Assembly (NCBI GenBank): GCA_021797745.1
Contig: JAJZZD010000001.1
Coordinates: 128,468-192,467 of the forward strand
Origin: Candidatus Micrarchaeota archaeon
GTDB lineage: Archaea > Micrarchaeota > Micrarchaeia > Micrarchaeales > CABMGC01
DNA: 64,000 bases
Direction: 5' to 3'
A program made the position numbers and the translations under genes. Every line of letters starts with the position of its first letter. Within the stretch, counting starts at the first letter, position 1. Below, piece after piece: positions 18,426-38,449 of this stretch. The notes below the pieces were generated by a model. The model did not search any database. It saw only the letters and a list, made by a program, of their open reading frames with translations, and was not told the DNA's origin.

Positions 18426-18496
18426 AGCCAGGAAGGGGAGTCGAACCCCTCTATGCCGCTCTGCAGGCGGCCACATAGCCGATCTGTCATCCTGGC
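18426..18496 (-). tRNA. tRNA-Cys(GCA): tRNA-Cys (anticodon GCA)
   Basis: Hand fold: acceptor GCCAGGA/UCCUGGC, anticodon stem GCCGC/GCGGC with loop CU-GCA-GA, T arm AGGGG-UUCGACU-CCCCU, discriminator U as expected for Cys. Confidence 0.85.
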
Positions 18497-18565
18497 AGCA
18501 ATGCGTGCTGTTTTTGCGTTTCAGTGGTTATCGCCGCGGTTCAGCTATCTTATTAATTATTAACT

Positions 18566-18575
18566 TTTTATATTA
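18566..18575 (+). promoter_or_regulatory. TATA box candidate for the CBS/HPF-like gene
   Basis: ttttatatta centred about 27 nt upstream of ATG 18597. Confidence 0.45.
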
Positions 18576-18596
18576 ATCTGTCTTTTCGGTGACTCT

Positions 18597-19730
18597 ATGA
18601 ATTTGGACATTAAACTACCTGCGGAGTTCGTTTCAAAAGCGGAGGTTTGCGATTATAAAACGCCCATAACTGAGATTATAGGAAAAATAAGGTCGCGGGG
18701 CTCAGTAGTGGTGATGAAGGACGGGGAATATTTCGGGGTGGTGAACGGAAAGACAATAGCCGAAGGCGGCTTCGCTAAGCTTGCAAAGGACTCTGTCGGA
18801 AAATTTGCCGACAGGGTCGCAGCTGCGGGAACAGATATCACCATCGAAAACGCAATAAGCAGCCTCTACAATTCCGAGATTGACGCGCTCCCGATCAGGG
18901 ACGGCAAGAAGATAATCGGGATAGTGAGAAGGGAAAAGATACTCGAATCGATTCTTTCGCTCCATGCCCTTTCGAAGGTAAGTGTTGAGGACATAATGGT
19001 TTCCCCAATAATAGACATAGACTCTAATGCCAATGTAGCTGCTGCAATCGCACTCATGCAGCAGAAGAAGATAAAGCGGCTCGTGGTAAACGACAGGGGA
19101 AAGCCTGCAGGCATAATAACGCAGAACGACATACTTTTCTCTCTCTCAAGGCCAGAGGAGAGGCTACCTGAGCTTAAGGTTGACGCGCATTCGCTGGAAA
19201 ATATTAGCGTCGGCAGCGTTGCTAACATGTACCTCAACACCGTATCTTATGACGAAAAAATAGATGCGGCGATAAAAATCTTCATAGAAAAAAAGGTAAG
19301 TTCAGTAGTTGCGATGAGAGGCGGCAGTGCAGTAGGGCTCATTACCGTTAGGGACGTACTCAAAGCAGCGATGCCAAAACCAGCAACAATTGATTCGCAA
19401 ATCATAATATCAGGATTGGACGACCGCACCAAGGAATTCGAAAATGAAATGAGGTCGCAAATAGGCAACTTCATAAGCAAGGCCGACAAGTTTTCGAGCC
19501 CAAGGCTAAAAATAGTAGAGATAAATGTTAAAAGAAAAGCCAGGGTGTATGAAGCTGCAGGCACTATGGAATTCGAAAGGGGCAACGACATACACGCGAA
19601 GGTTACGGCTTATAACACAGAGCAACTGGTGAGCGAGCTCATGGAAAAGCTTTACAAAATCGCTAAGGAAGAGAAGGAGGAAAAGATACACGACAAAAAA
19701 GAGGGCGGGAATGAGTATGAGGAAGAATAG
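18597..19730 (+). CDS. Four CBS motifs (two Bateman modules) fused to a C-terminal HPF/RaiA (ribosome hibernation factor)-like domain
   Basis: CBS-like segments such as IMVSPIIDIDSNANVAAAIALMQQKKIKRLVVNDRGKPAGIITQNDIL. The C-terminal ~100 aa (IIISGLDDRTKEFENEMRSQIGNFISKADKF...IVEINVKRK...GNDIHAKVTAYNTEQLVSELMEKLYKIAKEEKE) aligns by eye with the HPF/YfiA pattern. Confidence 0.7.
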   Translation: MNLDIKLPAEFVSKAEVCDYKTPITEIIGKIRSRGSVVVMKDGEYFGVVNGKTIAEGGFAKLAKDSVGKFADRVAAAGTDITIENAISSLYNSEIDALPIRDGKKIIGIVRREKILESILSLHALSKVSVEDIMVSPIIDIDSNANVAAAIALMQQKKIKRLVVNDRGKPAGIITQNDILFSLSRPEERLPELKVDAHSLENISVGSVANMYLNTVSYDEKIDAAIKIFIEKKVSSVVAMRGGSAVGLITVRDVLKAAMPKPATIDSQIIISGLDDRTKEFENEMRSQIGNFISKADKFSSPRLKIVEINVKRKARVYEAAGTMEFERGNDIHAKVTAYNTEQLVSELMEKLYKIAKEEKEEKIHDKKEGGNEYEEE

Positions 19731-20184
19731 GCTGTTGCAGTCCAGCTTCGAGCTGCTCATAACATTATCTTTCGGTCTGGCGCTCCTGCTTCCTTTAGTC
19801 ATAGTCGCGTTTCTTCAGCTGGCAGGCGCCAACGTGTCGCTTTCTTCTGTCGAGGCGCAGCAGGCAGCGAGCAAGCTTGCAAGCACGGCGACGCTGGTGG
19901 GAAGTGAAGGCGTGCCGGCAAAGCAGCTTGTGCAGATACAGGTTCCCTCGAGCGTGACTTCAATTTATGTCGGAAACGTGAACAACACAACAGGACACGA
20001 GGTTATTTTTGTCGTGAGCTCGCCTTCAGGTTCTAGTTACATAACCGCATACTCTCCGGTAAACATAAGTGGTTCGTTGCAGAGCATAGAGAATGCCGGC
20101 ACGTATCTGGTTAATGTCAGTGCAGTGTCAAGTTGTCCGAGCAATACGCTTATGCCGTGCGTTTACATGTCAGAACGCACATGA
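19711..20184 (+). CDS. Small pilin-like protein with a class III (type IV pilin-type) signal peptide
   Basis: N-terminus MSMRKNRLL-QSSFELLITLSFGLALLLPLVIVAF: charged leader, Q at +1, E at +5, hydrophobic helix. Remainder is Ser/Thr/Val-rich with N-x-S/T sequons. Overlaps the end of the upstream gene by 20 nt. Confidence 0.7.
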   Translation: MSMRKNRLLQSSFELLITLSFGLALLLPLVIVAFLQLAGANVSLSSVEAQQAASKLASTATLVGSEGVPAKQLVQIQVPSSVTSIYVGNVNNTTGHEVIFVVSSPSGSSYITAYSPVNISGSLQSIENAGTYLVNVSAVSSCPSNTLMPCVYMSERT

Positions 20185-20293
20185 CGAGCGCTTTGCGTTG
20201 TGCAGCATGCCGGCGCATCAGCGCCTGCCTGTGGACTGCAGATGTGGACTGAGACGCAAACTGTTGGCGTGTTAAAACGATGTGTGAAATTGC

Positions 20294-23200
20294 ATGAATA
20301 ACTTCGCTGAGAAACATGGATGCGTGAAGCAGCAGAAACGGCAGAAGCAGCAAATTGCCCTCGAATTTCTGATAGTGTTCGCTTTCGTGATGCTGATATT
20401 CACAATACTTTTCGTGCTGATAGCCAACCAAAGGAGCCTTGTCATAAACCAGCAGACTTTCACTGAGGCGCAGCTTATCGCACAGCAGGTATCTGCTGTG
20501 ATAAACACTGCCATACAATCAGGGAGCGGCTATGCCAGCTCCACAATACTCACCGGCTTTATAAACAGCATACCCTACTCGCTTTACGTTTCTAAAAGCG
20601 GTCTTGTGCTTGTCAATTTGACACTCGGCCACCAGGTAATAGAGGCAGTAGCCTATGTGCCTGCACACAGTATCGTAGCGAGCAACTCTATGCTAGTAAC
20701 AGGGTCAAACGTGCTGTATTCGATACCTACTTATAACAGCATAATGACTGTGCAGAACTACCTTGGGCATGTGTGCATAGATTACAACTGCGGCACATCG
20801 AATAATTTTGCGAGCAACATAACGCTCACTGAGCAGGCAGTACACGCTGCTGCTTTCAGCAACGTGAGCAGTTTCATAAGCACCCCTGGCTACAACGCAC
20901 TGCCCACTGGCTCGTCAGCAAGGTCGGTTTTCGCGTGGGTCTATTTCACAGGTGGAATTTCTAACTACACAGTGTTCAGCTACGGAACTGCGGCAACAGG
21001 CGAGATGCTGGATTTGCGCATCCACCACAGGACTCTCCAGGTCGGCACAGGCGCATCGTATTACTCAAGCCCTCTTAACATTTCCAACAATACCTGGACT
21101 TTTGTAGGGCTTACATACGCCGCTGGCTCCTCCAATGTGATAGTTTATGCCAATAGCAGCAGTTCCCAATTTTCGGTTTCAGGTCCGCTGAACACATTTG
21201 GCACAACTGCAGATATAGGCGCACAGGCAGGCTGCAAATGCCAAAACATGAAAGGCTACATAACCAACTTGCAGGTTTACGCTTACAACCTGTCCAAAAG
21301 CCAGGTGCAGAATCAGTACTCGGAAGGAATAGGCGCTTCGCCGCTTACTGGAAATCTTGTGGCATGGTATCCTCTGCAGGGCAACGCCAACGACTACAGC
21401 GGCTACGGAAACAACGGAACTGCACATGGTCCTGTGTTCTATCCTTCTGCAGTAGAATTTTTCGCAAAAGCAGCAAGCTTTTCAATGACTCCAGTGGAAA
21501 ATATCCCAATAGGCTTCGTTGCTTCCTCTGGCTCTTTCACAGATTCCAACACTGCAAACGCACGTGTGTATGTTAACTACACAAATTCAAACGGCGTAGC
21601 CACGGCATTTCTAACGCAAACAGGAAACAATGGACAGGCTTTAGTCACTGCAACCGCTTTCAACGGCAATTCGTCATTGACAGGCAACATCGCCGCGTTC
21701 TGGCCGCTCAACGCGCAGCAGGGCAACAGGCTTTACGATATATCCGGCAATAATGCCAACGGCGCCATAACCTATTCCTCATGGTCCTTGCCTGACTATG
21801 CTAGCTTTTTCGATGGCAGCTCAGCGTATGTGGAAATACCTACCACTTCGCAGCTCAACAGCACAACGTTTACAGTCAGCTTTTGGATGAATCCAAGACT
21901 GTATGGCAATGCGCAGGACAATCTAACGCTGCCAGCAGCAAGTTCTAGCTCAAGCGCAAGCGTTCTTGTGAGCCATACGTACAACAGCATGTGGTGGATG
22001 ACCTTCGGTGATAATAACGAGGTGTCAATGTATGTTGAAAATTCAATCACGCCTTCGCAGTGCTGCCAGTCGGTAATTGCTTACAACGCAGTGCCGCAGC
22101 TAAACAAGTGGTATATGGTAACCGGCATCGCTAATTCCACGTACATTAAAATATACATAAACGGAATGCTCGTGCAGGAGCAGCCGATAATCGGAAGCAT
22201 CCAGGAGGCTGGCAATAGCATTGTGGTAGGAACCGGTTTCGGGGCTCAGGCCACTTCATATGGATATTTCTCCGGCCAGATTTCAAATCTCCAAATTTAC
22301 GACACTGCGCTTACTTCCGCACAGGTTCAGGAGCTTTACAATTCCGGCATCGCCGGGTCTCCGGTTTCCGCCAGTTCCCTTTCAGGATGGTGGCCGCTCG
22401 ATGGCGACGCAAAGGACTACAGCGCGTATCTTAACAACGGCACAGTATTCGGAAACTTGACCAACCTGAATCTTGGCAATCTGCAGAGCACAAACGCAAA
22501 TTATACGTCTCTTCTCTCTGCCAGCTTCAACGGCGTTTCTGACTATAGCTACATATCCACTAATATTTCGCAGGTTAGCAACGCGTTGAGCGTAGCATTG
22601 TGGGTAAACGCAAGCAGCCTTTCAAAGATGACAAGCTCTGACGGCTATTCAATTTTCAACTCTGTAAGCTCTGGCAGCGGCAATCCAGTTTCATTCCTAC
22701 TGAACAATGGCGGCGGGCTTGGGACAAGTGCAGGCTCAGGCGATGAGGAGCTGTGCATAAGCGCAACGTGCTACAACGGTTACGGAATAAGCAACTCATC
22801 CTGGTACTTCCTTGCATTCACGCTGAACCGTGGCAACGCGAGCCTTTACGCAAACGGCGCTCCCCCTTACAACATATCCGTTCTCACTGGACCTTACTCA
22901 ATCAATTCGCTTTCTCTGGCTAAATCTGCGCTAGGAATAAGTGGATTCACAGGCAACATGTCGAATGTACAGATATATAGCAAGGCTCTCAGCCCGCAGC
23001 AGATTTACCGGATATATTCGAGCGGCATTTCCGGCATTCCTGTGAATTACTCTTCACAAAACACTAACCTTGTGGCATGGTATCCTCTGCAGGGCAACGC
23101 CAACGACATGAGTGCAAACATGAACAGCGGCATTCCCAGCAACGTAGCATATGCAAATACGGGATTCGTGAATAGCCATCTTGTAAACACGCAGGGAGGC

Positions 23201-23767
23201 TATGGGATAAACCTGAATGGCAACAGCAGCTACGCGTTTACCTCGACAAACGTGGCACTGGGCACAAACACAATGACGGCAGTCGCGTGGGTGTATCCTG
23301 AACAGATACGCGGGACAAGCGGACCCATAAAGATAATACTGAGTTCAAAACAGGCGCAGAACGGTGGTTTTGTCCTTGCGATACAAAACGGCAGCAGCAA
23401 TAATTACTTCTCTGCGAATTTCTCAGTGTATGCTAACGCCAAATGGAACAAGGTCACAACGCCCACGGCCTTGAATCCGTATGACGATTGGTACCAGATA
23501 GCAGGCGTGTACAACAACTCATATATAGGAATCTACATCAACGGCGTTCTCATGAACAAAACGGCTCTGACTGGCGCGATAAACCAGCCTGCCGGTGTAA
23601 CAAGCATAGGCGGCAATAACGGTAACACCACAGACTACTTTGCCGGAGCAATCGCAGATGTGCAGGTATATTCTGTTGCTCTGACGCAGCAGCAGCTTCT
23701 TCAGCTTTATGCGTATGGAATGCCTCCGTATGCGCGCGCAATAGCACAGTTTTCGGTGATAAATTGA
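20294..23767 (+). CDS. Giant pilin-signal-bearing surface protein with four LamG (concanavalin A-like, Laminin_G_3 type) domains
   Basis: N-terminus KQ-QIALEFLIVFAFVMLIFTILFVLI (Q+1, E+5). Four domain-end signatures (G.I(T/S)N(L/V)Q(V/I)Y...LS..Q...(L)Y..G). Domain-start modules of the type WYPLQGNANDYSGYGNNGT. About 30 N-x-S/T sequons by hand count. Confidence 0.85.
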   Translation: MNNFAEKHGCVKQQKRQKQQIALEFLIVFAFVMLIFTILFVLIANQRSLVINQQTFTEAQLIAQQVSAVINTAIQSGSGYASSTILTGFINSIPYSLYVSKSGLVLVNLTLGHQVIEAVAYVPAHSIVASNSMLVTGSNVLYSIPTYNSIMTVQNYLGHVCIDYNCGTSNNFASNITLTEQAVHAAAFSNVSSFISTPGYNALPTGSSARSVFAWVYFTGGISNYTVFSYGTAATGEMLDLRIHHRTLQVGTGASYYSSPLNISNNTWTFVGLTYAAGSSNVIVYANSSSSQFSVSGPLNTFGTTADIGAQAGCKCQNMKGYITNLQVYAYNLSKSQVQNQYSEGIGASPLTGNLVAWYPLQGNANDYSGYGNNGTAHGPVFYPSAVEFFAKAASFSMTPVENIPIGFVASSGSFTDSNTANARVYVNYTNSNGVATAFLTQTGNNGQALVTATAFNGNSSLTGNIAAFWPLNAQQGNRLYDISGNNANGAITYSSWSLPDYASFFDGSSAYVEIPTTSQLNSTTFTVSFWMNPRLYGNAQDNLTLPAASSSSSASVLVSHTYNSMWWMTFGDNNEVSMYVENSITPSQCCQSVIAYNAVPQLNKWYMVTGIANSTYIKIYINGMLVQEQPIIGSIQEAGNSIVVGTGFGAQATSYGYFSGQISNLQIYDTALTSAQVQELYNSGIAGSPVSASSLSGWWPLDGDAKDYSAYLNNGTVFGNLTNLNLGNLQSTNANYTSLLSASFNGVSDYSYISTNISQVSNALSVALWVNASSLSKMTSSDGYSIFNSVSSGSGNPVSFLLNNGGGLGTSAGSGDEELCISATCYNGYGISNSSWYFLAFTLNRGNASLYANGAPPYNISVLTGPYSINSLSLAKSALGISGFTGNMSNVQIYSKALSPQQIYRIYSSGISGIPVNYSSQNTNLVAWYPLQGNANDMSANMNSGIPSNVAYANTGFVNSHLVNTQGGYGINLNGNSSYAFTSTNVALGTNTMTAVAWVYPEQIRGTSGPIKIILSSKQAQNGGFVLAIQNGSSNNYFSANFSVYANAKWNKVTTPTALNPYDDWYQIAGVYNNSYIGIYINGVLMNKTALTGAINQPAGVTSIGGNNGNTTDYFAGAIADVQVYSVALTQQQLLQLYAYGMPPYARAIAQFSVIN
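21361..21424 (+). repeat. 64 bp segment identical to 29020..29083 (encodes WYPLQGNANDYSGYGNNGTA)
   Basis: Base-by-base comparison: ggcatggtatcctctgcagggcaacgccaacgactacagcggctacggaaacaacggaactgca occurs at both sites. Flanking sequence diverges immediately. Confidence 0.9.
23069..23107 (+). repeat. 39 bp segment identical to 21356..21394 (third copy of the WYPLQGNAND module)
   Basis: cttgtggcatggtatcctctgcagggcaacgccaacgac is present at both positions. Confidence 0.9.
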
Positions 23768-23781
23768 ATGCGGCTGACTCG

Positions 23782-24321
23782 ATGAAACTTCAGTTCTGGT
23801 CTTTCGACGTAGTGTTTTCTATGGTCGTTTTCAGCGGAGCGCTCATGCTGCTTACGCTCGTGTGGTACAACCAGAGCAACCAGTTCTCGTCGACATACGG
23901 GCTTGAGGTGTTAAGCATACAGGCGCAGCTGCTCAGCCTCCAGAACCGCATAATGATGCAAGGTTCGCCTTACAACTGGTATTCCGTACTAAATGCAGCT
24001 GACAAAGCCACGTGGAGCAACATAAGCATAGGAATAGGCACAGGCATAGGCAACAACATTTCTACAAGCAGACTTGATGCGCTCATGTCAATAGCGTCGT
24101 TCAATTACACATCTTACCAGAATTCGAAGCAGATGCTAGGCATAGGGTACGACTATCTGCTAAACATAACCGGTACAAATATACACATCCTTATAGGGAG
24201 AAATCCTGCTGCTTTCAACGCCACTTCAGTGCAGACTGCAAGCATGCCAATATTCATAGAGGGAAATCCCGCGAATATGAAAATAGAACTGTGGACAAAC
24301 ACCACGTTAGGCGTTAGCTGA
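23782..24321 (+). CDS. Small pilin-like protein (N-terminal hydrophobic class III-like signal)
   Basis: MK-LQFWSFDVVFSMVVFSGALMLLTLVW followed by a polar domain with sequons. Tightly packed after the 1157 aa gene. ATG 23782 preferred over TTG 23764. Confidence 0.6.
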   Translation: MKLQFWSFDVVFSMVVFSGALMLLTLVWYNQSNQFSSTYGLEVLSIQAQLLSLQNRIMMQGSPYNWYSVLNAADKATWSNISIGIGTGIGNNISTSRLDALMSIASFNYTSYQNSKQMLGIGYDYLLNITGTNIHILIGRNPAAFNATSVQTASMPIFIEGNPANMKIELWTNTTLGVS

Positions 24322-24426
24322 CATTCAGCGTTAAAAAGATAAAAAAGAAAAAGCAAAAAAAGAGAAATAAAAAGATGGAAAAATAAAACAAAACGGCGGT
24401 AAAAAGGAAATCACGATGATGTAATC

Positions 24427-26604
24427 ATGGGAAACATAAAACAAATGAAAGGATTGGTTTTCACCCTTGACGCAATGTTCGCGTTCATAGTGGTAAGCGT
24501 AGGAATAACGATACTGCTTTTCCTAAACTTCTTTTCACAGGTGCCTGGAAGCTCGCGCTACTCGCAGGTATCATTGACGACCAGCTACCTGCTTTCCACT
24601 GAAATAATGCTGACGCAGAACGCAAGTTCTGTAGCTGCGCAGGTAGTCAGTCAGAACCTCGGTGCCAACGAGTCATGGCCGCAGTTCATGGGCAATTCGC
24701 AGAGGCAGGGCAATAATGGCTACGCTCCGTCTCTGCCGTCGGTTTCCTACATATTCAACGCGACGCACAACATACTCACCAACGTTGCGGCGGATTATGG
24801 AAACCTGTATTTTGCCACGCAAAACGCAGTGTTCGCTGTGAATGCCACAAACAACGAAACAGTATGGACTTCGAATAAGGTGACGTCGCCTTACAACTCA
24901 GTTGCGGTTTACCATGGCGACGTATTCATAGCAAATTCAGTGGATCTATTTGCGCTTAATTCCTACAACGGTAACATGGTATGGTCGACTTCGCTAAGCA
25001 GTAATCCCACCTCCCAGCTGCTTGTGTACCAGAATCAGATCGTGCTCGGCGAGGGCAGCAACTCGCTGTATTCATTCTATGCCGGCAACGGAACTTTGGC
25101 ATGGAGCTTTCCATTTAATTCCCCGCCTGTGTTCGCGGCCACTGCAGACGGGAATCTTGCAGTCGTCAACTCATCAGGCTATCTTTTCATGGTAGCAGTT
25201 CCTTCTAACACGTTTTCAGGGAGTAACATAAACGTGCTCTGGAGCAAGCCGCTCGCCACAGCAGGAATAACCACGCAGAACGGGAAGATATTCTCTGCCA
25301 GCGGCAACACTGTGGAGATAACCTACATAAATGAAACAAACCTGCTGGCTCAAAATCTGGGCAGCGGCAACATAATTACTGGTGTAGCATTCGGATACGG
25401 AGATGCAGTATATCAAACCGAACAAAGCGTTTCTGTGCTTAACTTCTCTGGCAAGTTCAAGTACAACTTCTCTGCACCGGCGTATTTCGGCTCTTACATA
25501 GCCAACGCCATACCTGTAGTGTCGAAAAAAGGGATATACACAATATGGTCAAACGGTATTGCAATGCAGAACATCACAAACGGCGATTTGGAATGGTTCA
25601 CTAATATTCCAACTGCGCAGTACAGCGCGCTCTCCAGTTATCTCACTCTGGCATACGGAAGGCTCTATGCTGTTGCAGGCACAAGGCTTATAGCTTATGG
25701 CGCGTGCAACGCAAAAGACACAGAGCAACTGCTTCCTGCGCTCGCAGAATTCTACACCAACTTAGAAGGCGGCTGCGGCCAGTCACTGCTTTACAGCATA
25801 GGTGCGGGCTCGAATTACAGTCTGTCTATTAACGGCACATTCGCGCCGTCCATGCACGTTGCGAAGCTCAATGCAAGCGCATACAACAACAGCGCGTTAG
25901 GCACTAGCGGCTTTTTCCTGTCTAACTCATCGCTCAGCAATCTCAGCTCGTTCACGATAACCGCATGGGTGGATCCTAATGCATACAGCACCAAGCAATA
26001 CACGAGCGACATATACACAATAGGCCCTTTGTCAGGAAACTGGGCGCTCAATTTCTCAATGGGCGCTTCCGGTCAGCTCGCAATAGACGACTACAACGGC
26101 GTTACGTTGAAAAATTTCACCAGCAACATGATAATTCCGCTCAACAAATGGTCGTTCGTTGCTGTAACGTTTAACAACTCAAAGTTCGTGCTCTACGTTA
26201 ACAACAAACAGGCATCTGCGCCTGGCCAGGTTGAAACTGGAAATCACGAGAGTTACATTGGCCTTTACTACCGCGGCTATATCGCCAACATGCAGATATA
26301 CAACACGTCGCTCGGACCTGCACAGATGCAAGACGCCTACCTGTCGGGCATGGCAGGCTTGCCTGTTTCCTATGCGCACCTCATAGGATGGTACCCTCTG
26401 ATGGGCGATGCCAACGACTACAGCGGCTCACACAACACAGGCTATCCTTACCACGCGTCGTGGCCAAATTCAACATATGTGCCTTCGGGACTTTCCAACG
26501 CGCAGCAGGTGAGCAGTTCAAGTGCTGTGATTCCGGTAAGAAACTACAGTGGCAACAAAACAGTGACGAGGCTTAAGAACGTAGGCATTTTGTCCTGGGA
26601 TTGA
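24427..26604 (+). CDS. Pilin-signal-bearing surface protein: PQQ-like beta-propeller repeats plus one LamG domain plus an unpaired C-terminal LamG-start module
   Basis: N-terminus MKG-LVFTLDAMFAFIVVSVGITILLFL. Repeated A.N..NG..VW(S/T) propeller blades (ALNSYNGNMVWS, FYAGNGTLAWS, AVNATNNETVWT, QNITNGDLEWF). LamG end signature GYIANMQIYNTSLGPAQMQDAY, then GWYPLMGDANDYSGSHNTG followed by only about 50 aa. Confidence 0.8.
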   Translation: MGNIKQMKGLVFTLDAMFAFIVVSVGITILLFLNFFSQVPGSSRYSQVSLTTSYLLSTEIMLTQNASSVAAQVVSQNLGANESWPQFMGNSQRQGNNGYAPSLPSVSYIFNATHNILTNVAADYGNLYFATQNAVFAVNATNNETVWTSNKVTSPYNSVAVYHGDVFIANSVDLFALNSYNGNMVWSTSLSSNPTSQLLVYQNQIVLGEGSNSLYSFYAGNGTLAWSFPFNSPPVFAATADGNLAVVNSSGYLFMVAVPSNTFSGSNINVLWSKPLATAGITTQNGKIFSASGNTVEITYINETNLLAQNLGSGNIITGVAFGYGDAVYQTEQSVSVLNFSGKFKYNFSAPAYFGSYIANAIPVVSKKGIYTIWSNGIAMQNITNGDLEWFTNIPTAQYSALSSYLTLAYGRLYAVAGTRLIAYGACNAKDTEQLLPALAEFYTNLEGGCGQSLLYSIGAGSNYSLSINGTFAPSMHVAKLNASAYNNSALGTSGFFLSNSSLSNLSSFTITAWVDPNAYSTKQYTSDIYTIGPLSGNWALNFSMGASGQLAIDDYNGVTLKNFTSNMIIPLNKWSFVAVTFNNSKFVLYVNNKQASAPGQVETGNHESYIGLYYRGYIANMQIYNTSLGPAQMQDAYLSGMAGLPVSYAHLIGWYPLMGDANDYSGSHNTGYPYHASWPNSTYVPSGLSNAQQVSSSSAVIPVRNYSGNKTVTRLKNVGILSWD

Positions 26605-26605
26605 T

Positions 26606-29197
26606 ATGATGGAAAAATCAGCATATGGCGCAAACAAAACAGAAAAATCCTGCAGATTAGGCCCAGCAGCGGGAAGCATGAAAGCACAGCTCATGACACT
26701 CATAACGCTCCTTATTTTCCTGCTGATGCTAGCTGAGATATTCACGCTCGCGCTTATCAACATAAACCAGAACACTATATCGCAATCCGTAGCGTTACAG
26801 AGCTTCCAGACGAATTACGGCAAACTGCTCAGGCAAAGCGCCGATTCTTTCGCTTCGAGGAGCGCTTCGCAGTCGCTTACCACTCTGATAAATTACGAAT
26901 ACAATGCATCATTAAGGAAGGGAAATTTTGTGGCTAACGCAAGCCAATACCTGTCTGACCTTATGATTAACGGCGTCCTTCCAAACGAGACGACAGGCTA
27001 CACCCAGAACGCCATGGCTAACCTCACTCTTGAATCATACAACACGTCGCTTGCAAGAACTCTTAACATAGCAGCGCAGAATCTCACCATAAACGAAACC
27101 ATGCCTTTCGTTTATCAGCCCAACGCTTATTCGATCGGTGTGAGATACGCAGAGCGCGTTTTCATAAATGCATCTGGCACATCCTACAGATTCAACATAC
27201 CTGTCAACGTGTCTGTGCCGCTTAACGGCACATACGACCTTTTCTACGCGCAGCAAGGGGCTCTTAGAAAGATAACCTTCTTCGGATCAGGAAACCTGAC
27301 GAGCGTGATAGGTAATGCATATGCGACATCAGGCAACAATGTCGGGTTCGCATACGGAACTGTTTACTGGGTGGCGAGCAGCTCTTCGTCTTCTGCCGCT
27401 TGCAGTTCGCTGCCAAGCCAAACTACATATCTGCCTATAATAGTTACGTACAACGCACAGAACCTCGGTGGTTGCATAAACAATTATGCAGGCCTTATAA
27501 CCTATGAAGCCCCGGCATCTGTGTCAGTGCCTTATCTAGTTTACAATACGTCTTCGCACATAGTTTCGCAGCTTACCACCGGATCGAAAGTGCTTTTGTA
27601 CGGTCCCGGCTTCGATACGCTGAACATAGAAAATCTAAGGAAAGCCGTCACGGACAACTATTACTTCGCGTCGCCGTTCACGCCTTCTTATCTCCAAAGA
27701 TCTAGTTCTGACTTTATGCAATATTCGCAGCAGGGCATGTTTGACTTCATGAACTACGGTCAGCAGGCTCTGAGCATAGGCCCGGGACAAGGATACGTTA
27801 CAGCCGGCGGGTTCTCTGCACCAAACTCCATAACAATATCGCTGTGGTTCAAGCCGACTGCATTTTCAGGCAACGAGTTCCCTCTTGACAGCAACCCTTC
27901 AGGGATATGGAGAATAGGATTCGAGCCGTCATCTTCCAACAACCTAGTATTTGACCCGGACACATCTTCCGCAGTGACAATTCCGTTTGCGGTCAACAGC
28001 GAGTCATGGTATAACCTGGTGCTCAATGCCTACGATTCAGGTGCGAGCACCAAATATCTGTTTTACATGAATGGCAACCTGATAAGTTCCGGGTCTGTGT
28101 CAGGTGTGATGTCAAACTCAGTTAATGACATAGTGCTCGGCAACGAATATTCCTCATTTAACGGGGAGATTTCGAACGTGCAGATATATGACTCGAACCT
28201 ATCGGCTTCGCAGATATTCAAGCTCTACCTTAACGGAATTTCAGGACTGCCAATAAGCAACGCCAACATAATAGAGTATCTTCCGCTCAACGGCAACGCC
28301 AACGACCTGAGCGGCACAGGAGCCAACGGCGCTGTAACAAATGCAGTTTTCGTGCAGGCAACAAACTATTCACGCGACAGCATATTTTCCTATCCTGTAT
28401 CTACTGCGCTTTCGCCGATTCCAGGAATTCTCTGGTGCGATACCAATGCTGAATGTGCCTCAAATTCACAGCCGCACTTGTTCGTAGGCAGCAACCCAGT
28501 AGAAATAGGCAACAGGTATCTTGAGGTGGCAAATTTCACGCAGACGTCGTCAACAAGCAACATAGTGTCAACGGTTACAGGAACTAACTTAACGCCGGGC
28601 GGCTACAATACCGCCGCCTTCTGGATGGACTGGAACGGAGTTACCGGCGAGAAGCCCATATCTTTTGGCAGCTACTCCATACTGATGTCTTCAGTATCAT
28701 GCTTCGGGTTCGACTCTTCAGGCACTGATGTGTACGGAAGTTCTGCCAATACGCTCGGCAGATGGACCTTCGTGGCTGCAATCTTCTACAATGGCATATA
28801 TACGTCGAACAGCATGATTTACGTGAATGGCGTCCAGCAGTCTCTGACGCAGTGCGCAGGCTCTGCAAACACGCCGCTGATAAGCGACAGCGTAACAATA
28901 GGGCCGCTTAGCAGCTACCTGGCTAATGTGCAGCTTTACCGTTCCAAGCTTACAAGCGCGCAGATACAGGACCTATATTCGCGCGGACCCTACGGAACTC
29001 CGATCGTGCAGAACCTCACGGCATGGTATCCTCTGCAGGGCAACGCCAACGACTACAGCGGCTACGGAAACAACGGAACTGCATCGTCGGCAATAACCTA
29101 TCCGTACATACCTGCAGGCAGTGTTCCATTCCAAGATTCTGAGTCAGGGCTTGAAACTGAAATGCAGTTTATAGGTCTTTCGCCGCATGGCGGCTGA
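26606..29197 (+). CDS. Surface protein with an N-terminal hydrophobic anchor/signal, two LamG domains and an unpaired C-terminal LamG-start module
   Basis: MKAQLMTLITLLIFLLMLAEIF helix (a later start at 26678 is possible). LamG end signatures GEISNVQIYDSNLSASQIFKLY and YLANVQLYRSKLTSAQIQDLY. Ends with TAWYPLQGNANDYSGYGNNGTA plus 38 aa. Confidence 0.8.
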   Translation: MMEKSAYGANKTEKSCRLGPAAGSMKAQLMTLITLLIFLLMLAEIFTLALININQNTISQSVALQSFQTNYGKLLRQSADSFASRSASQSLTTLINYEYNASLRKGNFVANASQYLSDLMINGVLPNETTGYTQNAMANLTLESYNTSLARTLNIAAQNLTINETMPFVYQPNAYSIGVRYAERVFINASGTSYRFNIPVNVSVPLNGTYDLFYAQQGALRKITFFGSGNLTSVIGNAYATSGNNVGFAYGTVYWVASSSSSSAACSSLPSQTTYLPIIVTYNAQNLGGCINNYAGLITYEAPASVSVPYLVYNTSSHIVSQLTTGSKVLLYGPGFDTLNIENLRKAVTDNYYFASPFTPSYLQRSSSDFMQYSQQGMFDFMNYGQQALSIGPGQGYVTAGGFSAPNSITISLWFKPTAFSGNEFPLDSNPSGIWRIGFEPSSSNNLVFDPDTSSAVTIPFAVNSESWYNLVLNAYDSGASTKYLFYMNGNLISSGSVSGVMSNSVNDIVLGNEYSSFNGEISNVQIYDSNLSASQIFKLYLNGISGLPISNANIIEYLPLNGNANDLSGTGANGAVTNAVFVQATNYSRDSIFSYPVSTALSPIPGILWCDTNAECASNSQPHLFVGSNPVEIGNRYLEVANFTQTSSTSNIVSTVTGTNLTPGGYNTAAFWMDWNGVTGEKPISFGSYSILMSSVSCFGFDSSGTDVYGSSANTLGRWTFVAAIFYNGIYTSNSMIYVNGVQQSLTQCAGSANTPLISDSVTIGPLSSYLANVQLYRSKLTSAQIQDLYSRGPYGTPIVQNLTAWYPLQGNANDYSGYGNNGTASSAITYPYIPAGSVPFQDSESGLETEMQFIGLSPHGG
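29020..29083 (+). repeat. 64 bp segment identical to 21361..21424
   Basis: See 21361..21424. Located near the 3' end of the 863 aa gene. Confidence 0.9.
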
Positions 29198-29249
29198 CGC
29201 AGTCCTAAATTCCAGCAGCAGCCAAAAGCAGCCAGAATGGCAAAAAAAG

Positions 29250-30239
29250 TTAAACTCCTCCGAGAGAGGCGAATATGCCGCTTATCACCGCTGATGCGAC
29301 TAAGAATGTGCTTACGGCAACGAGTATGAATATTGGCATTAGTCTGATCCCCTTGACTACTGAACCGCTCGATATCGCGCTCACTATGAATGACGCAAAC
29401 GTGGCTATCATAATCACAGAAGTTAAGGCGAAATCATAGTACGCAGAGGTAGTTATCTGGGGAGGGTTTGGCCTGAGGAACGACACGCCTATAGTGGGCA
29501 GGCCTCCCGGGCTGGATTTGAGTATCTGCGTCCATACTGAATTTGTCACTCCTATCATCTGTGACGTGAGCGCGTAAAGAACTGGCGCGCCTATTATCGC
29601 CGCGAAAGCTATGAATATAGTGTAAAGAAACAATTGCCCTGATATTTCTTTCTGCACCATCTGCTGGTTTCTCAGGTCTTTTGCTATGCCGTTAAGCAAG
29701 TCAGTCATGCCTCCGCCGTATTGTATGCCTTCTATTATCATGCGTATCGTATGCTGCAATTGATTCGACCTGTATCTCTTCCCCAGGTCTACGAACGCCT
29801 GCTGCAATGTTATGCCAGTGTAAAGTTCCTTGTCTATGTCCTTTATGTCGTTTCCAAAATAGCCGAATTCAGGCCTTACTGCCAATACTACTGACTTGTC
29901 TATTGCTATTCCGCTCCTTATGTTTGCCGCAACTATCTGCAGGTAGTCAGGAAGCACACTTTCCACGAAATTTTTCCTCTGCTCTATCTTGAGTTCAAGT
30001 ACTGCATAAAGGAGCAGCTCATAAATTCCCGTAGCTGCAAAGCCGGCCAAAGCAGCGATTCCCGTGTTGTATCCTTCAGTTACCAGCAGCGCAGGCACTA
30101 AGACGAAAACGAGTATTCCGCCGAATATCACAAGAGTCAGGTATCTTTCAAGCGTCATCCTGATACCGGAGAGCTTCAGCTCCTCCCTGAGTATATTCGC
30201 GACGTTTCTCGAAACCAATTTTTCCAGGGATAAAGCCAT
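29250..30239 (-). CDS. Type II secretion system F-domain membrane protein (FlaJ/TadC-like pilus platform subunit, single T2SSF domain)
   Basis: One cytoplasmic helical T2SSF-like domain (LQQAFVDLGKRYRSNQLQHTIRMIIEGIQYGGGMTDLLNGIAKDL) flanked by TM helices. Adjacent to a second single-domain paralog and to the ATPase. Confidence 0.8.
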   Translation of the reverse strand: MALSLEKLVSRNVANILREELKLSGIRMTLERYLTLVIFGGILVFVLVPALLVTEGYNTGIAALAGFAATGIYELLLYAVLELKIEQRKNFVESVLPDYLQIVAANIRSGIAIDKSVVLAVRPEFGYFGNDIKDIDKELYTGITLQQAFVDLGKRYRSNQLQHTIRMIIEGIQYGGGMTDLLNGIAKDLRNQQMVQKEISGQLFLYTIFIAFAAIIGAPVLYALTSQMIGVTNSVWTQILKSSPGGLPTIGVSFLRPNPPQITTSAYYDFALTSVIMIATFASFIVSAISSGSVVKGIRLMPIFILVAVSTFLVASAVISGIFASLGGV

Positions 30240-30243
30240 TTAA

Positions 30244-31419
30244 TCACATTGCGAACGAAGGTCTGGAGCTCCTGAGTATGTTGAGGAACAAAATCTGCAC
30301 GAACAGCATGCCCACTATCATCATCAAAAGCGTAGTAGGTGTAACTGTTATTATGTTTATGAATGTGGTTATTATTGCAGCTACTGCTATGCCCATGCTG
30401 GGGAATATGACCCCGAAAAGCATGTAAAACATTGCGAGGGCATTGAGCCTCTGTCCGTATCTCCTCAGCTCTATCACGCGCTCCTGCATTACCTCGTCCA
30501 CAACTTCCTGCAGAGCCCCAACAATGTCTGCGCCCGCTTTTATGCTGACGCTAGCCTGAAGCATTATTCTTTTGAACGTTTTCGACTTGCTCTGAGCGCT
30601 CACCCGGTCTATTGCATCGCTTATTGGCGTACCAAGCTCCACAAGGTCCACAATTTTTTTGAATTCGTCGCTGGCTGCGCCGTAGCCCGTGCTTACTGAT
30701 GTTATAGCGTTGAATAGAGGCACTCCAGAACGCATACCTATCACTATGTCCCTTGTGGCGAAAAGTATGTCCTTTTCGATTTCCTTGCCTTCTGCTTTGA
30801 CTTTTTCCAACGGATAAGTTATAAATTTCTGGAAGAATGCGATCCGGAGGGCATAGCCAAAGGCAATGCCTATTACTATTCCTGCTATCACGTTGCCGAA
30901 TCTTATCAGCAACGCAGCTACCGCGACTGCTAAGACTGCTGCAACTATTATCGAATTTATGAGCATCTTCTTCACGAAATCGTACGGGCTTATCTTCATG
31001 CCCGATTCTATGAGAGCGTCGTCAAGGCCCTTGTGCTTTTCAAGCTCCTTGGCGATGTAGATTTGTATCATTCCAGGCTTCTTGAATCTCTGCTCTCCCT
31101 GACCGGCAGATTTTGGCTGCGGCTCCTTATGGCCGAAAGCGGCTTTCGGAATTGCAGAATATTCGGGTATTTCCTCATGCTCCGCTCCTCTGCCTTCTGC
31201 CGGCCTTGCTGCAGGGTTGGCTGTGATTTCAGGAGAGTACATATGCTGGCCAGGCTGTGCCTGTTGTGCAGCTTGCTGCGCAGCCTGTGGCTGCTCGTTA
31301 GAATATATCGGCTTTGACCTTATCTTGAAAAAAAGAAATTTCCTGCTCTTGGTGAATCCGGTTATACTTGCACTCTTGTTTGTTTCATTGCTTTTTTTCC
31401 GGAATAATTTCATAAACAT
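30244..31419 (-). CDS. Type II secretion system F-domain membrane protein (FlaJ/TadB-like) with a ~130 aa Gln/Ala/Pro-rich N-terminal extension
   Basis: T2SSF-like region GMRSGVPLFNAITSVSTGYGAASDEFKKIVDLVELGTPISDAIDRV..IKAGADIVGALQEV plus TM helices. N-terminal PQAAQQAAQQAQPGQ low complexity. ATG 31419 or 31413 preferred over TTG 31434. Confidence 0.8.
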   Translation of the reverse strand: MFMKLFRKKSNETNKSASITGFTKSRKFLFFKIRSKPIYSNEQPQAAQQAAQQAQPGQHMYSPEITANPAARPAEGRGAEHEEIPEYSAIPKAAFGHKEPQPKSAGQGEQRFKKPGMIQIYIAKELEKHKGLDDALIESGMKISPYDFVKKMLINSIIVAAVLAVAVAALLIRFGNVIAGIVIGIAFGYALRIAFFQKFITYPLEKVKAEGKEIEKDILFATRDIVIGMRSGVPLFNAITSVSTGYGAASDEFKKIVDLVELGTPISDAIDRVSAQSKSKTFKRIMLQASVSIKAGADIVGALQEVVDEVMQERVIELRRYGQRLNALAMFYMLFGVIFPSMGIAVAAIITTFINIITVTPTTLLMMIVGMLFVQILFLNILRSSRPSFAM

Positions 31420-31441
31420 CACTGTCAAATTCAACCCGATT

Positions 31442-32089
31442 TCACTGGGCTATGCCAAGCTGAAGCGCAACTGCCATGAGCAGCTGGTTCCTTGCGTTTA
31501 CCTGGTCCTGCGGCGCATTGGTCTTCTTCTGCATGATTTTCAAGAGTCCTGCTATCTCGTCATTTATTACATTAAGCTCGTCTTCGCCGAACGCGTTCTC
31601 GTCAAGCCCTTCGCTTATCTTCTGCAAGTCGTTTATTTGGTCCTGGAGTGATAGCTTCGGGAGCACTAGCCCTGAGGTGTTTACCTTTTCAGAAAATTTT
31701 TCAATATTGCCTTCAAACTCCTCGCCTATGTTCCTGAACCTCTGCTCGAGCTTTCCCGCAGCCTTTTCAGTTTCTTTCCTGTATTCCTCGTTCCTTATGA
31801 CCCTCTTTATTCCCGGAGCCGGCTTCTGCGCCTCTTTTTCTTTTCCCGCATGTGCAGCCTGCGTCTGAATCTCTGCCTGCTGTTTTTCCTTTGCCTCCTT
31901 TGCCGCCTCCGGTTTAACGCGAACTCTTATCCCTTCTGCTTTTTCCACGTCTTCTAATACGTCGCCATATGCCTGTTTTTTGACTTCCTGCGCTTTCTCA
32001 AGCGCATCGTTTCCCACACTTAGCTCCCCGACTCTGCCGCCTTCTTCTGATTCAGTTATCAGTCTGATTGCTTCTTGGTAAGTTGTCAA
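31442..32089 (-). CDS. Hypothetical highly charged (Glu/Lys-rich) soluble protein of the pilus operon
   Basis: ORF packed between the ATPase and platform genes (16 and 22 nt gaps). No TM helix and no recognisable motif. Confidence 0.6.
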   Translation of the reverse strand: MTTYQEAIRLITESEEGGRVGELSVGNDALEKAQEVKKQAYGDVLEDVEKAEGIRVRVKPEAAKEAKEKQQAEIQTQAAHAGKEKEAQKPAPGIKRVIRNEEYRKETEKAAGKLEQRFRNIGEEFEGNIEKFSEKVNTSGLVLPKLSLQDQINDLQKISEGLDENAFGEDELNVINDEIAGLLKIMQKKTNAPQDQVNARNQLLMAVALQLGIAQ

Positions 32090-32105
32090 TCACGGCACCC
32101 ATGCA

Positions 32106-33593
32106 TCATAATATGTCGTTAGAGAACTTAACGTCCTCTTCCGCCAATTCGAGTATCTTTTCCCTGTTTTTGTAGTAGTTAACTACCACCAATCCTGCGT
32201 CATTCACGTCGTATATCTTGTTCTTCACCATCCAGCTCAGAATCTTGGATTTTTTAGCTAGCTCGTCTGCTATTTCGTTCTTACTGTATCCGCCATAAAG
32301 GATTATTGTGTCCAACAGCCTCTTGAAATCGCCATTTTTGACGAATGTGTCAGTACTTACATCCCACCTGTATATCGAGTTCACGTTGCCGTCGTTAAGT
32401 ATTTCGCCAAAGTCAAGAAGCCTCCTTATGCCAAGGCGCCTGTGCCTTAAAAGCGAGACGACGCTTCCGAACGCATTCAGCATTATCTTGGGCGTGTCTA
32501 TCGGAGGATTGGTCATTCTTATTATAGTATCCTCTGCGTTGTCGGCATGCACTGTGCCGTACACTGCATGGCCGGTGTGTATTGCCTCGAGGAGCGTCTC
32601 GGCGTCAGGCTTTGTCCTTACCTCTCCTATCAGCACTATGTCCGGCCTTTGCCTAAGCGCATTTATCATCAAATCATACAGCTTTATTTCTCCCTTGCCT
32701 TCAGGGTTCGGCTGTCTGGTAAGCATTGGCACCCAGTGCAGGAAATCCGGCAGCGTCAGCTCCCTGGTTTCCTCGACAGAAATTATTCTCCTTGTCGCAG
32801 GCATGAAAATGCTCATTGCGTTCAAAAAGCTCGTCTTCCCGCTCGCAGTGCCTCCTGATATGAGTATGCTTATCTCGTTCTCTATGCACAACCATACGAG
32901 CGAAGCTATTTCTGGCGATATCGTTCCATTGCCTATCATTGCAGGCATTGTCCACGGGTTCTTTCCGAACTTTCTTATAGTAAGAGTGTTGCCCTTCTGC
33001 GAAATAGGATAAAGTGTGGCATTGACCCTTGAGCCGTCAGGCAGTTCAGCGTCCATCAGCGGCGAAAGGTTTGTTATCTGCCTGCCTACTCTCCTGCCTA
33101 TCTGCTCTGCGTCGTTGTAAATGGCGTTCTCATTCTGAAGCCTTATGTTGGTCCTGCACCAGCCATAGACCTTGTGATACACCCACGCATTTTCGCTTGA
33201 GTTGTTTATCACTACCTCTTCCAGGTTTTCGTCTGCAAGCGGAGCTTCGAGCTCACCAAGGCCGAGCATGACGTTTACCACGTATGCTATTATGACTTTT
33301 TTCGAGTCCTTGGCAGTTCCAGGCAGATACCTGTCTATTAGTATGTTCGAGGCTTCTGAATATCTGTCAGTGAGCTCCCCTATGTATTCTTTGCTCTCTA
33401 TCTTCATTATGTCTATTGGGACCATCGATATTAGCTCCTGCCGTAGGGACTGGAGCAATATTTTCGTTGCATCGCCCAAGCCTGGTATCAAAATGTAGTA
33501 GATGGGCGTGAACCCGCCCTCGTCCTTTATTGTTATGTTTACCGATAGCCCGTGTGCATCGAGATTGTATGTTTCCAATATTTTTTCAGCCAT
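32106..33593 (-). CDS. FlaI/TadA/VirB11-type secretion ATPase (type IV pilus assembly ATPase)
   Basis: Walker A GGTASGKTS, Asp box region RIISVEETRELTL, Walker B DIVLIGEVR, His box HTGHAVYGTVHA. ATG 33593 (MAEKIL) preferred over 33623. Confidence 0.9.
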   Translation of the reverse strand: MAEKILETYNLDAHGLSVNITIKDEGGFTPIYYILIPGLGDATKILLQSLRQELISMVPIDIMKIESKEYIGELTDRYSEASNILIDRYLPGTAKDSKKVIIAYVVNVMLGLGELEAPLADENLEEVVINNSSENAWVYHKVYGWCRTNIRLQNENAIYNDAEQIGRRVGRQITNLSPLMDAELPDGSRVNATLYPISQKGNTLTIRKFGKNPWTMPAMIGNGTISPEIASLVWLCIENEISILISGGTASGKTSFLNAMSIFMPATRRIISVEETRELTLPDFLHWVPMLTRQPNPEGKGEIKLYDLMINALRQRPDIVLIGEVRTKPDAETLLEAIHTGHAVYGTVHADNAEDTIIRMTNPPIDTPKIMLNAFGSVVSLLRHRRLGIRRLLDFGEILNDGNVNSIYRWDVSTDTFVKNGDFKRLLDTIILYGGYSKNEIADELAKKSKILSWMVKNKIYDVNDAGLVVVNYYKNREKILELAEEDVKFSNDIL

Positions 33594-33713
33594 GCAAACG
33601 CCGTCCGATTTATGAATCTGCAATTTACGCTTTATCCCTTTACGATTGATTCAATGCCTTCTCTAATTTTTAATACCTTCCCGCATCTGGCTTAGAGCGC
33701 ACGTGCGCCATGC

Positions 33714-34901
33714 CTATTTTCCTTTCGGCTTTTTGATTCCTTTGATATCTTTGCCTAACTTCGAAATGGCATTTCTGCTAGATGCTGCCTTGTTTGCTGC
33801 GGCTTCTACTGCGGCGCTCTTTTCAGGCAGCCTGTCTGCGCTGATGACGCTTGCGCTTTTCAGTATGCTTTTTATCTCGCCCAGCTCTTTTACTATCTCA
33901 TCCCTTTCCTGCTGTACTGCCTGTATGCTGCTTCGCATTTCTCTTATCCTTGAATCAAGTTCTGCATATCCGCCTAGTTTTCCGCGCACGTTTTCAATTG
34001 CCGCTTTCAATGCCGCGATCTGGCCCTTTGCGGCGTCATACATCTGGCGAGTTTCCTGGACAGTTTTCGAAACTGTGTCAAGCATGCTCGCCCTGTATTT
34101 CAAAAGCTCTTTTTTCGTATTCTCTGCATTGGCTTTGTATTCTTTGGAAATCCTGTCATAGTCCTCGACTTTCCTTGACTGCTCGCTGAGTTCCCTACTG
34201 AGCGCTGTCTCTTCATTCCTTATATTTCTCACAATTTCGTCGAAGGTTTCTTTCTGCTCCTTTTGCTGTTCGTAGAACATCCTGTTCAGCACTGTGAGCC
34301 TCTCGTGCGCGTCGCTGAGCATAGCCTGCAAATCATTCATTCTGCTCTTGGCATCCACTAGCGGTCCGTAGCCCTCTATCTGCTCAGCGCGTTTTTCAAT
34401 CTCTTCAAGCTCCGGGCTAACCTTCTGAAGCATGTCTTCCTCTGTTTTTTTTATGCCTACAAGCTTCGCATCGGTTTTTTCCGCTGCTGTTTCATACGCG
34501 CTGAGTTTGTCAAGCATCTCCTTTATCGCGCCAGCCTTTGACTTGAATTCTGATTCTGTAATTACCGCAGTTTTTTTGTAGCTCTCTATCGCCGCATCAA
34601 GTTCTTTTATGCTTTCTTCCTGCGCTTTAATGTCTTCTTCAAGTGTTACCTTTTTCATCTCTGCTGTCTTCTTTGCACTTTCCGATATTTCGCCGCTGCC
34701 ACCCGATAAGCTCACATACATCTTACCTACTTTGTAGGCGACTTTTATCACGTCTGCCTTTTCCAGTATGCCCACCCACGATTCCACGTTGCCTTCTTCG
34801 ACTCCGAGCTTGCTGGCAAGCTCAGTGGCCTCTGTTTCCCCATGCTCCTTCAGGTAGTTGACGAGGTTGTCTATGCCTGTTGTTATGACCTGGTCTGCCA
34901 T
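33714..34901 (-). CDS. Winged-helix-like N-terminal domain fused to a ~330 aa coiled-coil protein (pilus locus accessory)
   Basis: N-terminal 60 aa (ITTGIDNLVNYLKEHGETEATELASKLGVEEGNVESWVGILEKADVIKVAYKVGKMYV) is paralogous to the adjacent 77 aa protein. The rest is heptad-like and Glu/Lys/Ala-rich. Confidence 0.7.
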   Translation of the reverse strand: MADQVITTGIDNLVNYLKEHGETEATELASKLGVEEGNVESWVGILEKADVIKVAYKVGKMYVSLSGGSGEISESAKKTAEMKKVTLEEDIKAQEESIKELDAAIESYKKTAVITESEFKSKAGAIKEMLDKLSAYETAAEKTDAKLVGIKKTEEDMLQKVSPELEEIEKRAEQIEGYGPLVDAKSRMNDLQAMLSDAHERLTVLNRMFYEQQKEQKETFDEIVRNIRNEETALSRELSEQSRKVEDYDRISKEYKANAENTKKELLKYRASMLDTVSKTVQETRQMYDAAKGQIAALKAAIENVRGKLGGYAELDSRIREMRSSIQAVQQERDEIVKELGEIKSILKSASVISADRLPEKSAAVEAAANKAASSRNAISKLGKDIKGIKKPKGK

Positions 34902-34983
34902 GAATTTCGTTATAAACTACTTTTAAAAGATTTAATACCCTTTTGTATTGGTAACTGCGTTTAGGACGCGCATATCTATCACG

Positions 34984-35217
34984 TCACTGTCGCTCTCCGG
35001 CTTTGCCATTTTCAAGAACTCGCACGTACATCCTGCCCATGCGGTAGCTCACTCCCACAACTCCTGCCTTTTCCAGGGCGCCGACCCACTCTTCAATGTG
35101 CTTTTCATCCGACTTGACCGCTTTGGCCAATTCCGCAGACTCTGTCTCCCCGTGTCTTTTAAGGTAGGCGACCAGCTCGTCGATGCTTGTGGTTACAGTT
35201 TCACTGTCCATATTCAC
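34984..35217 (-). CDS. Stand-alone winged-helix-like small protein, paralog of the N-terminus of 33714..34901
   Basis: VTTSIDELVAYLKRHGETESAELAKAVKSDEKHIEEWVGALEKAGVVGVSYRMGRMYV aligns position-for-position with the neighbour (roughly half the residues identical by eye). Confidence 0.65.
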   Translation of the reverse strand: MNMDSETVTTSIDELVAYLKRHGETESAELAKAVKSDEKHIEEWVGALEKAGVVGVSYRMGRMYVRVLENGKAGERQ

Positions 35218-35332
35218 ACGTTAATTTATCTGTCCATTATGATTTCTTGGTTTAGTTTCCTGTTGCTCCTGTTTTCCTTTCATTTTCAGTCTGTTCAAGC
35301 CACACATGGTTCGCATAACACTACCGTTTACG

Positions 35333-35827
35333 TCATTGTGCCGACACTGCAAGTGTGCCATTATCTACGCTCTGCGTTGCCGTCGCTTCGTCTATTGTGT
35401 TAACTACTAAATATCCGTCGAAATAGTCGCCAGCAGATCCGGAGAATACGGTGTTCTGACCGGTATAGCAGCTGACTGCAAACGTGTAGTTCGAGCCCAC
35501 CGCCATAAGCACGCCTCCACCTCCGTTCAGCGTCTCTACGTTAGTGAGCGTGCCCTGCTCGTTGCATGCTATGCCTATGACGTTGACTGGCATATTGATG
35601 CTTTCGAGGTTCACTATAAGCAGCCCGTTGGTTGCGAACGTCAGGCCTTTGCACAGGAAATTGTTGAGCAGGCACGTGCTCTTTGCTCCGAATGCATTCG
35701 TGTTGAAAAGCCCGAGCGCGTAGAGTGCGGCAAGCACAACTCCTATTATCAGGAAAGCCCAGCCATAAGTTATGAGAAATTCCATTGCCGATTGGGCTTT
35801 GGATTGAGATTTTGAGTTCGCGTACAT
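35333..35827 (-). CDS. Archaeal type IV pilin (class III signal peptide), candidate major pilin of the locus
   Basis: MYANSKSQSKA-QSAMEFLITYGWAFLIIGVVLAALYALGLF is the classic archaeal pilin N-terminus (Q+1, E+5, TYGWA). An AT-rich TATA-like element lies about 29 nt upstream of ATG 35827, so this start is preferred over 35875. Confidence 0.85.
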   Translation of the reverse strand: MYANSKSQSKAQSAMEFLITYGWAFLIIGVVLAALYALGLFNTNAFGAKSTCLLNNFLCKGLTFATNGLLIVNLESINMPVNVIGIACNEQGTLTNVETLNGGGGVLMAVGSNYTFAVSCYTGQNTVFSGSAGDYFDGYLVVNTIDEATATQSVDNGTLAVSAQ

Positions 35828-38376: not shown

Positions 38377-38449
38377 TAGCTCCAGCCAGATTCGAACTGG
38401 CGTCAGCGGGTCCAGAGCCCGCTATCCTTGACCACTAGACGATGGAGCT
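38377..38449 (-). tRNA. tRNA-Gln(CUG): tRNA-Gln (anticodon CUG)
   Basis: Hand fold: acceptor AGCUCCA/UGGAGCU, anticodon stem GCGGG/CCCGC with loop CU-CUG-GA, T arm GCCAG-UUCGAAU-CUGGC, discriminator A. Confidence 0.85.

Follow-up and report, generated by a model that had tools for sequence, protein, structure and literature searches.

How do two different genes of one surface-protein locus come to share 64 nt letter for letter, when the DNA on either side of the shared stretch diverges at once? The question was raised by an earlier note on a 64,000-nt stretch of a Micrarchaeota genome (the window, at its full length), which proposed either recent gene conversion or the use of the shared module as a recombination junction for shuffling LamG cassettes between adhesin genes. 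We consider the identical tracts to be footprints of short-tract ectopic (interlocus) gene conversion among three of the seven copies of a junction motif, left by at least two events, and we put the probability of this reading at roughly 85%.

Pilin-like LamG genes beside the type IV pilus machinery

The genome measures ~0.8 Mb, and the database entries closest to it are Micrarchaeota MAGs. Four genes of the locus encode proteins whose N-terminus reads K-[GAQL]-[QL] followed by ~20 hydrophobic residues, a sequence pattern like that of archaeal prepilins, which is found in all four and in their orthologues; no profile matched these N-termini. Three of the proteins carry LamG_3 domains (PF13385; E = 2e-63, 2e-15 and 2e-22), and the pilus assembly genes, with one match to PF00437 and two to PF00482, lie directly downstream of the LamG genes on the opposite strand (Table 1). 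Genome-wide (the genome is 90.6% complete) there are seven LamG_3 matches, all within the three intact ORFs of the pilus locus, and the genome therefore has no silent donor cassettes.

Micrarchaeota rely on contact with a host archaeon. The foremost candidates for establishing it are pilin-like proteins with LamG domains (PMC5498576). In Mia14, a cultured Micrarchaeon, LamG-like proteins are linked to type IV pili loci (PMC5498576). The present locus agrees with that case (Golyshina et al. 2017) in phylum, in domain family and in the association with pilus genes, the role proposed there being host-cell contact; the Mia14 paper holds no junction motif, conversion tracts or cassette mosaicism. 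A modular type IV pilin with a lectin module is also represented by PilC of Streptococcus sanguinis (PMC9934059, PMC8179133). Judged by sequence, the proteins studied here resemble PilC in combining a putative pilin-type N-terminus with one or more concanavalin-A-like/LamG modules in a type IV pilus locus, and they probably act in adhesion. Unlike PilC they are archaeal, 725–1157 aa long, and equipped with one to four LamG modules bearing a W[WY]PLxGNANDYSG motif, and both their incorporation into the pilus and their ligand binding are putative.

The motif encodes the peptide xLxxW[WY]PLxGNANDYSGxGNNG, downstream of LamG domains in the three pilin-like genes, and the codon phase is the same in all copies. 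For six of the seven domains it starts 51–69 nt past the end of the Pfam LamG match, and this spacing marks the motif as a constant appendage at the C-terminal end of the LamG module. The fourth LamG domain of the 1157-aa gene (window 23216–23767) is the sole LamG domain in the genome without a trailing motif. Between copy A and LamG 2 of the same gene lie ~90 residues of a further beta-rich segment and then the degenerate motif (21698). An AlphaFold2 model of LamG 2 with its motif and tail (mean pLDDT 66) contains a confident beta-sandwich, on which 'LTAWY' is predicted to form a beta-strand of the preceding LamG domain (pLDDT ~84), with low confidence for the GNANDYSG part.

Table 1. Genes and copies of the post-LamG motif at the pilus locus, in window coordinates
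Feature	Position	Strand	Remarks
1157-aa pilin-like protein	20294..23767	+	Four LamG_3 domains (20876-21310, 21812-22330, 22538-23005, 23216-23695)
185-aa small pilin-like protein	23764..24321	+	Hydrophobic N-terminus, no Pfam match
725-aa pilin-like protein	24427..26604	+	PQQ-type beta-propeller and one LamG_3 (25906-26325)
863-aa pilin-like protein	26606..29197	+	Conserved N-domain, two LamG_3 cassette slots (27788-28216, 28574-28969), conserved C-terminal tail
Type IV pilus machinery	29250..33623	-	Convergent; two T2SSF platform proteins (29250-30239, 30244-31434), 215-aa protein, T2SSE ATPase (32106-33623)
Copy A of the post-LamG junction motif	21356..21424	+	1157-aa gene, after LamG 1; first 39 nt equal copy C, last 64 nt equal copy B
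Copy C	23069..23107	+	1157-aa gene, after LamG 3; 39 nt exact with A, 34 of these also with B
Copy B	29020..29083	+	863-aa gene, after LamG 2, 38 codons before the stop; 64 nt exact with A
Diverged motif copy GWWPLDGDAKDYS	22384..22447	+	69% identical to A
Diverged motif copy GWYPLMGDANDYS	26385..26448	+	Near 3' end of the 725-aa gene; 70% identical to A
Diverged motif copy EYLPLNGNANDLS	28273..28336	+	863-aa gene, after LamG 1; 66% identical to A
Degenerate seventh motif copy AAFWPLNAQQGNRLYDISGNNANG	21698..21770	+	1157-aa gene, before LamG 2

Identical tracts in this genome and in related genera

The 64-nt identity between 21361–21424 and 29020–29083 is exact, as had been claimed. This 64-mer occurs exactly twice in the window, with 0 matches expected in shuffled sequence, and in the whole assembly (806 kb, nine contigs) it was found at these two sites only. 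The abrupt divergence reported outside the tract also holds, since identity extends by 0 nt on either side. The flanks around the tracts are homologous and ~45% identical, and the cores of the seven LamG domains of the genome are mutually 25–34% identical in protein sequence. The second tract, of 39 nt (CTTGTGG...AACGAC), is exact at 21356–21394 and 23069–23107; its recurrence is thus real, but it is no strict subset of the 64-mer as originally described, because the two overlap by 34 nt and the 5 extra upstream nt are common only to copies A and C. Copy A therefore matches C 5 nt further to the left than it matches B, and matches B 30 nt further to the right than it matches C, which implies at least two events.

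Codon statistics agree with the argument of the earlier note that selection on the peptide does not suffice to explain identity at every synonymous site. Given the same peptide, the probability that 21 of 21 codons are identical is 1.8e-9 under genome-wide codon usage, ~3e-7 when the same-codon rate at identical motif residues between genomes (0.47) is applied, and ~5e-4 with the most conservative rate (0.68), that of the other copies in the same genome. The non-identical motif copies of this genome use the same codon at 68% of their identical residues, compared with 36% in the adjacent framework. Their description as not conserved at the nucleotide level calls for one qualification: they are far from identical to copy A (Table 1), but their synonymous identity is raised. 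This raised identity of the non-converted copies may be the decayed trace of older conversion, and it could also be a matter of local codon preference.

Gene conversion would account for the small size of the tracts in the following way. Owing to the near-invariant peptide, the copies have runs of 12–30 identical bases in common beforehand; runs of this length would suffice for RadA-mediated pairing during repair, and the diverged flanks would block the spread of heteroduplex, so that just 39–64 nt would be copied. The genome encodes RadA (PF08423, E = 7e-87). We infer this repair process, and any direction of copying would likewise be inferred.

Conversion of this type is an ordinary, known kind of event, and among the papers found none describes it for a pilus LamG-motif setting. 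The features shared with prokaryotic ectopic conversion and concerted evolution are short, non-reciprocal copying between diverged paralogues, sharp bounds, tracts placed where prior identity is highest, and a recombinase of the RecA/RadA family. Short, patchy conversion tracts have been documented experimentally in Sulfolobus acidocaldarius (PMC3367456), whereas here a footprint is seen, in an uncultured DPANN archaeon. A further difference from known ectopic conversion is that the tract stays within a single 21-codon junction motif, which recurs both within and between pilin-like genes and has been homogenised independently in several genera.

The recurrence in relatives was established with LamG clusters drawn from 16 further genera within the family and order, in which 60 motif copies were identified by peptide pattern. 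Of these, 58 had complete flanks; they come from 15 of the 16 genera and were compared in pairs. The longest exact run in register between genomes was 32 nt, and 0.32% of 1549 pairs shared at least 30 nt, whereas within genomes this length was reached by 10.6% of 104 pairs, with runs including 89, 88, 88, 53, 43 and 41 nt (Fisher p = 1e-10, calculated on pairs that are non-independent). The exact tract in other genera is again centred on the motif and bordered by diverged flanks, and each genus has a tract sequence of its own. At locus L024 of genome G001, three LamG modules (2316, 7357 and 8161) carry an exact 88–89-nt tract on the motif (IANAGLVGWWPLDGNANDYSGFGNNGTA) and their flanks are diverged. 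At the positions orthologous to copies A and B, the complete genome G018 has ordinary synonymous differences. Taken together, the lineage-specific tract sequences, their recurrence and the divergence in G018 point to concerted evolution by gene conversion and argue against selection on one nucleotide sequence.

The proposal of gene conversion is thus well supported, by sharp bounds in ancient, diverged paralogous positions, by identity beyond codon bias, and by tracts that are lineage-specific and recur with other sequences elsewhere. Its qualification as recent applies in part: the tracts are young when set against the saturated divergence of the module, but they predate the split of two strains that are 0.9% apart. 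From 0 differences in 64 nt a loose age bound follows, with a synonymous divergence below roughly 0.2. A search of genome contigs returned distant Micrarchaeota only, the nearest other species being at most 44% identical in protein sequence, and scanning of metagenome contigs for close relatives by protein patterns and by the 34-nt core of A, B and C gave no match.

LamG cassettes in orthologues and strains

A more dynamic role of the motif, as suggested by the earlier note, would be that of an active homologous-recombination joint, at which crossovers or longer conversions swap, delete and duplicate LamG cassettes in the population and so generate variation of the surface involved in host attachment. 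The geometry of the locus would permit this, the copies being direct and in phase, so that deletions between A and B or between A and C would yield in-frame proteins of 414 and 586 aa, respectively. The orthologues of the 863-aa protein are likewise suggestive. They all share its architecture and all end in the motif and tail (YPYFSGxYNxPGLS...NEWQALGL), at no more than 44% identity to the 863-aa protein; copy B therefore occupies an ancestral position and is no new joint. A comparison of 37 proteins revealed a mosaic pattern, in which N-domain, linker, tail and framework-plus-motif blocks diverge in step, while the two LamG cores remain at background LamG similarity (~25–35%) even in the closest pairs, where the scaffold is 60–80% identical. 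For example, P0005 and P0012 are 80% identical in the N-domain, 35% in slot 1 and 31% in slot 2; the corresponding values are 80%, 30% and 80% for P0034 and P0035, and 77%, 34% and 86% for P0023 and P0025. The number of cassettes varies as well, since P0032 and P0033 are three-cassette versions (~1075 aa, three motif copies) on the same scaffold and tail. A single cassette type is present in slot 1 of three orthologues and in slot 2 of four, among them that of the present genome, and LamG 1 and LamG 4 of the 1157-aa gene cluster with slot-1 cassettes of 863-type genes elsewhere.

The family as a whole (orthologues P0002–P0046) has two hypervariable LamG slots with at least 25 cassette types in 37 proteins, and its closest orthologues (N-domain 70–80% identical) often carry unrelated cassettes (~30%). 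P0006 and the G018 protein P0010 are 85% identical in the slot-1 cassette and only 66% identical in the N-domain, which suggests that a single cassette moved laterally from one genus to another.

As read from these alignments, cassettes have indeed been replaced on a conserved scaffold in the course of evolution, and to this extent the idea of a shuffling junction stands; of present-day switching there is no sign. Contrary to what had been anticipated, the replaced segments do not break exactly at the module. Pairwise alignments place their end close to the 'NVQIY' strand, ~35 codons before the motif begins, and on this placement the most conserved stretch of a ~55-codon 3' homology block is the motif, which is itself no breakpoint. 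The tracts bring no cassette sequence along, and the genome contains neither silent nor partial LamG cassettes. In addition, the cassette type that changes slots has diverged between genomes to the same degree as the N-domains, and the slot change therefore looks old rather than ongoing.

The comparison of strains leads in the same direction. A 529-kb contig of GCA_027335715.1, which represents the same strain, agrees over 21 kb at 100% identity, and the intact 1157-aa gene is found on three large contigs of this strain. GCA_027363415.1, a MAG that represents a second strain, agrees over 19.2 kb at 99.1% identity and has both 64-mers and both 39-mers unchanged and in the same arrangement, the nearest SNPs lying 93–130 nt away. 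The SNPs of this second strain are also carried by a Logan contig of run SRR13188941, in which 12 of 15 are synonymous. Cassette swaps in a related strain, for which the earlier note proposed to look, were thus not seen: among at least four assemblies representing two strains 0.9% apart we found no alternative LamG arrangement, and the differences are SNPs, mostly synonymous. On this evidence we regard an active joint as improbable and retain short-tract gene conversion.

The differences between the strains are patchy. Relative to locus L039 of GCA_027363415.1 there are 172 over window positions 18931–38134, with none in 24000–27499 and 15–18 per 500 nt near 31000–31999, 33500–33999 and 37000–37499. 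This distribution suggests recombination between strains.

Pilin antigenic variation in Neisseria, in which pilE is altered by gene conversion from silent pilS cassettes, provides a useful comparison. Both systems involve type IV pilus proteins, conserved segments that frame variable ones and conversion between copies. Unlike the Neisseria system, the archaeal locus lacks both silent cassettes and an expression locus and gives no sign of high-frequency variants, and it is the conserved block that gets copied, not the variable part.

Across several genera, two observations stand side by side: the motif is homogenised within genomes, and replacement of the lectin cores far outpaces divergence of the scaffold. 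They mark the pilus LamG genes as a fast-evolving part of a very small genome, probably one that determines host specificity, and thereby indicate which segments are worth testing for host or ligand binding. A speculative extension, to which we give a low probability, is that the conserved block composed of the NVQIY strand, the helix and the W[WY]PLxGNANDYSG motif might act as a portable homology anchor. Conversion would keep this block alike within each genome, and pilus-tip scaffolds could then trade whole lectin cassettes with one another and with the DNA of other strains, or gain and lose them by duplication and deletion. If true, this would amount to recombination-driven retargeting of host attachment in an obligate episymbiont.

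Nucleotide selection, assembly and other repeats

Selection acting on the nucleotides themselves, through an RNA structure, an sRNA target or a protein-binding site, could in principle hold 64 nt identical, and the raised synonymous identity even among non-identical motif copies would fit such a constraint. This explanation is largely refuted already by the lineage-specific tract sequences: different sequences are homogenised in other genera, G018 diverges in the ordinary synonymous manner, and the same-codon rate between genomes is low, at the 0.47 given above. A function at the transcript level would call for a sequence conserved from species to species, and no such conservation is seen. An RNA element in particular was rejected, as the 64-mer folds no better than its shuffles (z = +0.55) and no Rfam match was obtained in the interval of 19–31 kb. 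We therefore judge nucleotide selection very unlikely.

An artefact of assembly or polishing, with a collapsed or chimeric repeat, has to be considered for any metagenome-assembled genome such as this one, and here it is scarcely credible. The contig ends overlap by 126 nt, from which an assembly k of 127 follows; the repeat of 64 nt is shorter than this, and single k-mers therefore span each copy together with its unique flanks. In two runs, the branch points of an independent k=31 graph coincide exactly with the edges of the repeats. In run SRR13235777 the Logan k=31 contigs cover 18443–21385, 21395–23098, 23078–29049 and 29054–38403, each break lying k-1 bases inside a repeat, and two of these four contigs had been predicted ahead of the lookup. 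Together with the two further NCBI assemblies, one of them from the different strain, which have the same tracts and flanks, these contig ends and the k-mer length rule out assembly collapse. The Logan contigs are uninformative on recombinant forms, since the 64-nt repeat exceeds k and cannot be phased, and recombinants create no new k-mers. For assembly in general, the case illustrates that repeats of 39–64 nt fragment k=31 assemblies exactly at these sites.

DPANN archaea are known hosts of diversity-generating retroelements and one copy does lie at the 3' end of a surface-protein gene, but the two copies are not the template and variable repeats of such an element, because the genome has no reverse transcriptase (RVT_1) match, the copies are 100% identical, adenines included, and both are situated inside coding sequence for a conserved, not a variable, peptide.

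Further repeats were noticed outside the window. Two near-perfect direct copies of 1.6 kb, 3 kb apart, are located on genome contig C2 (14827–16447 and 17873–19493) and possibly represent an insertion sequence or a duplicated gene. On genome contig C1, positions 92230–93230 hold an array of exact 31–204-nt repeats with a period of ~297 nt in a coding region, which looks like another case of repeat homogenisation.
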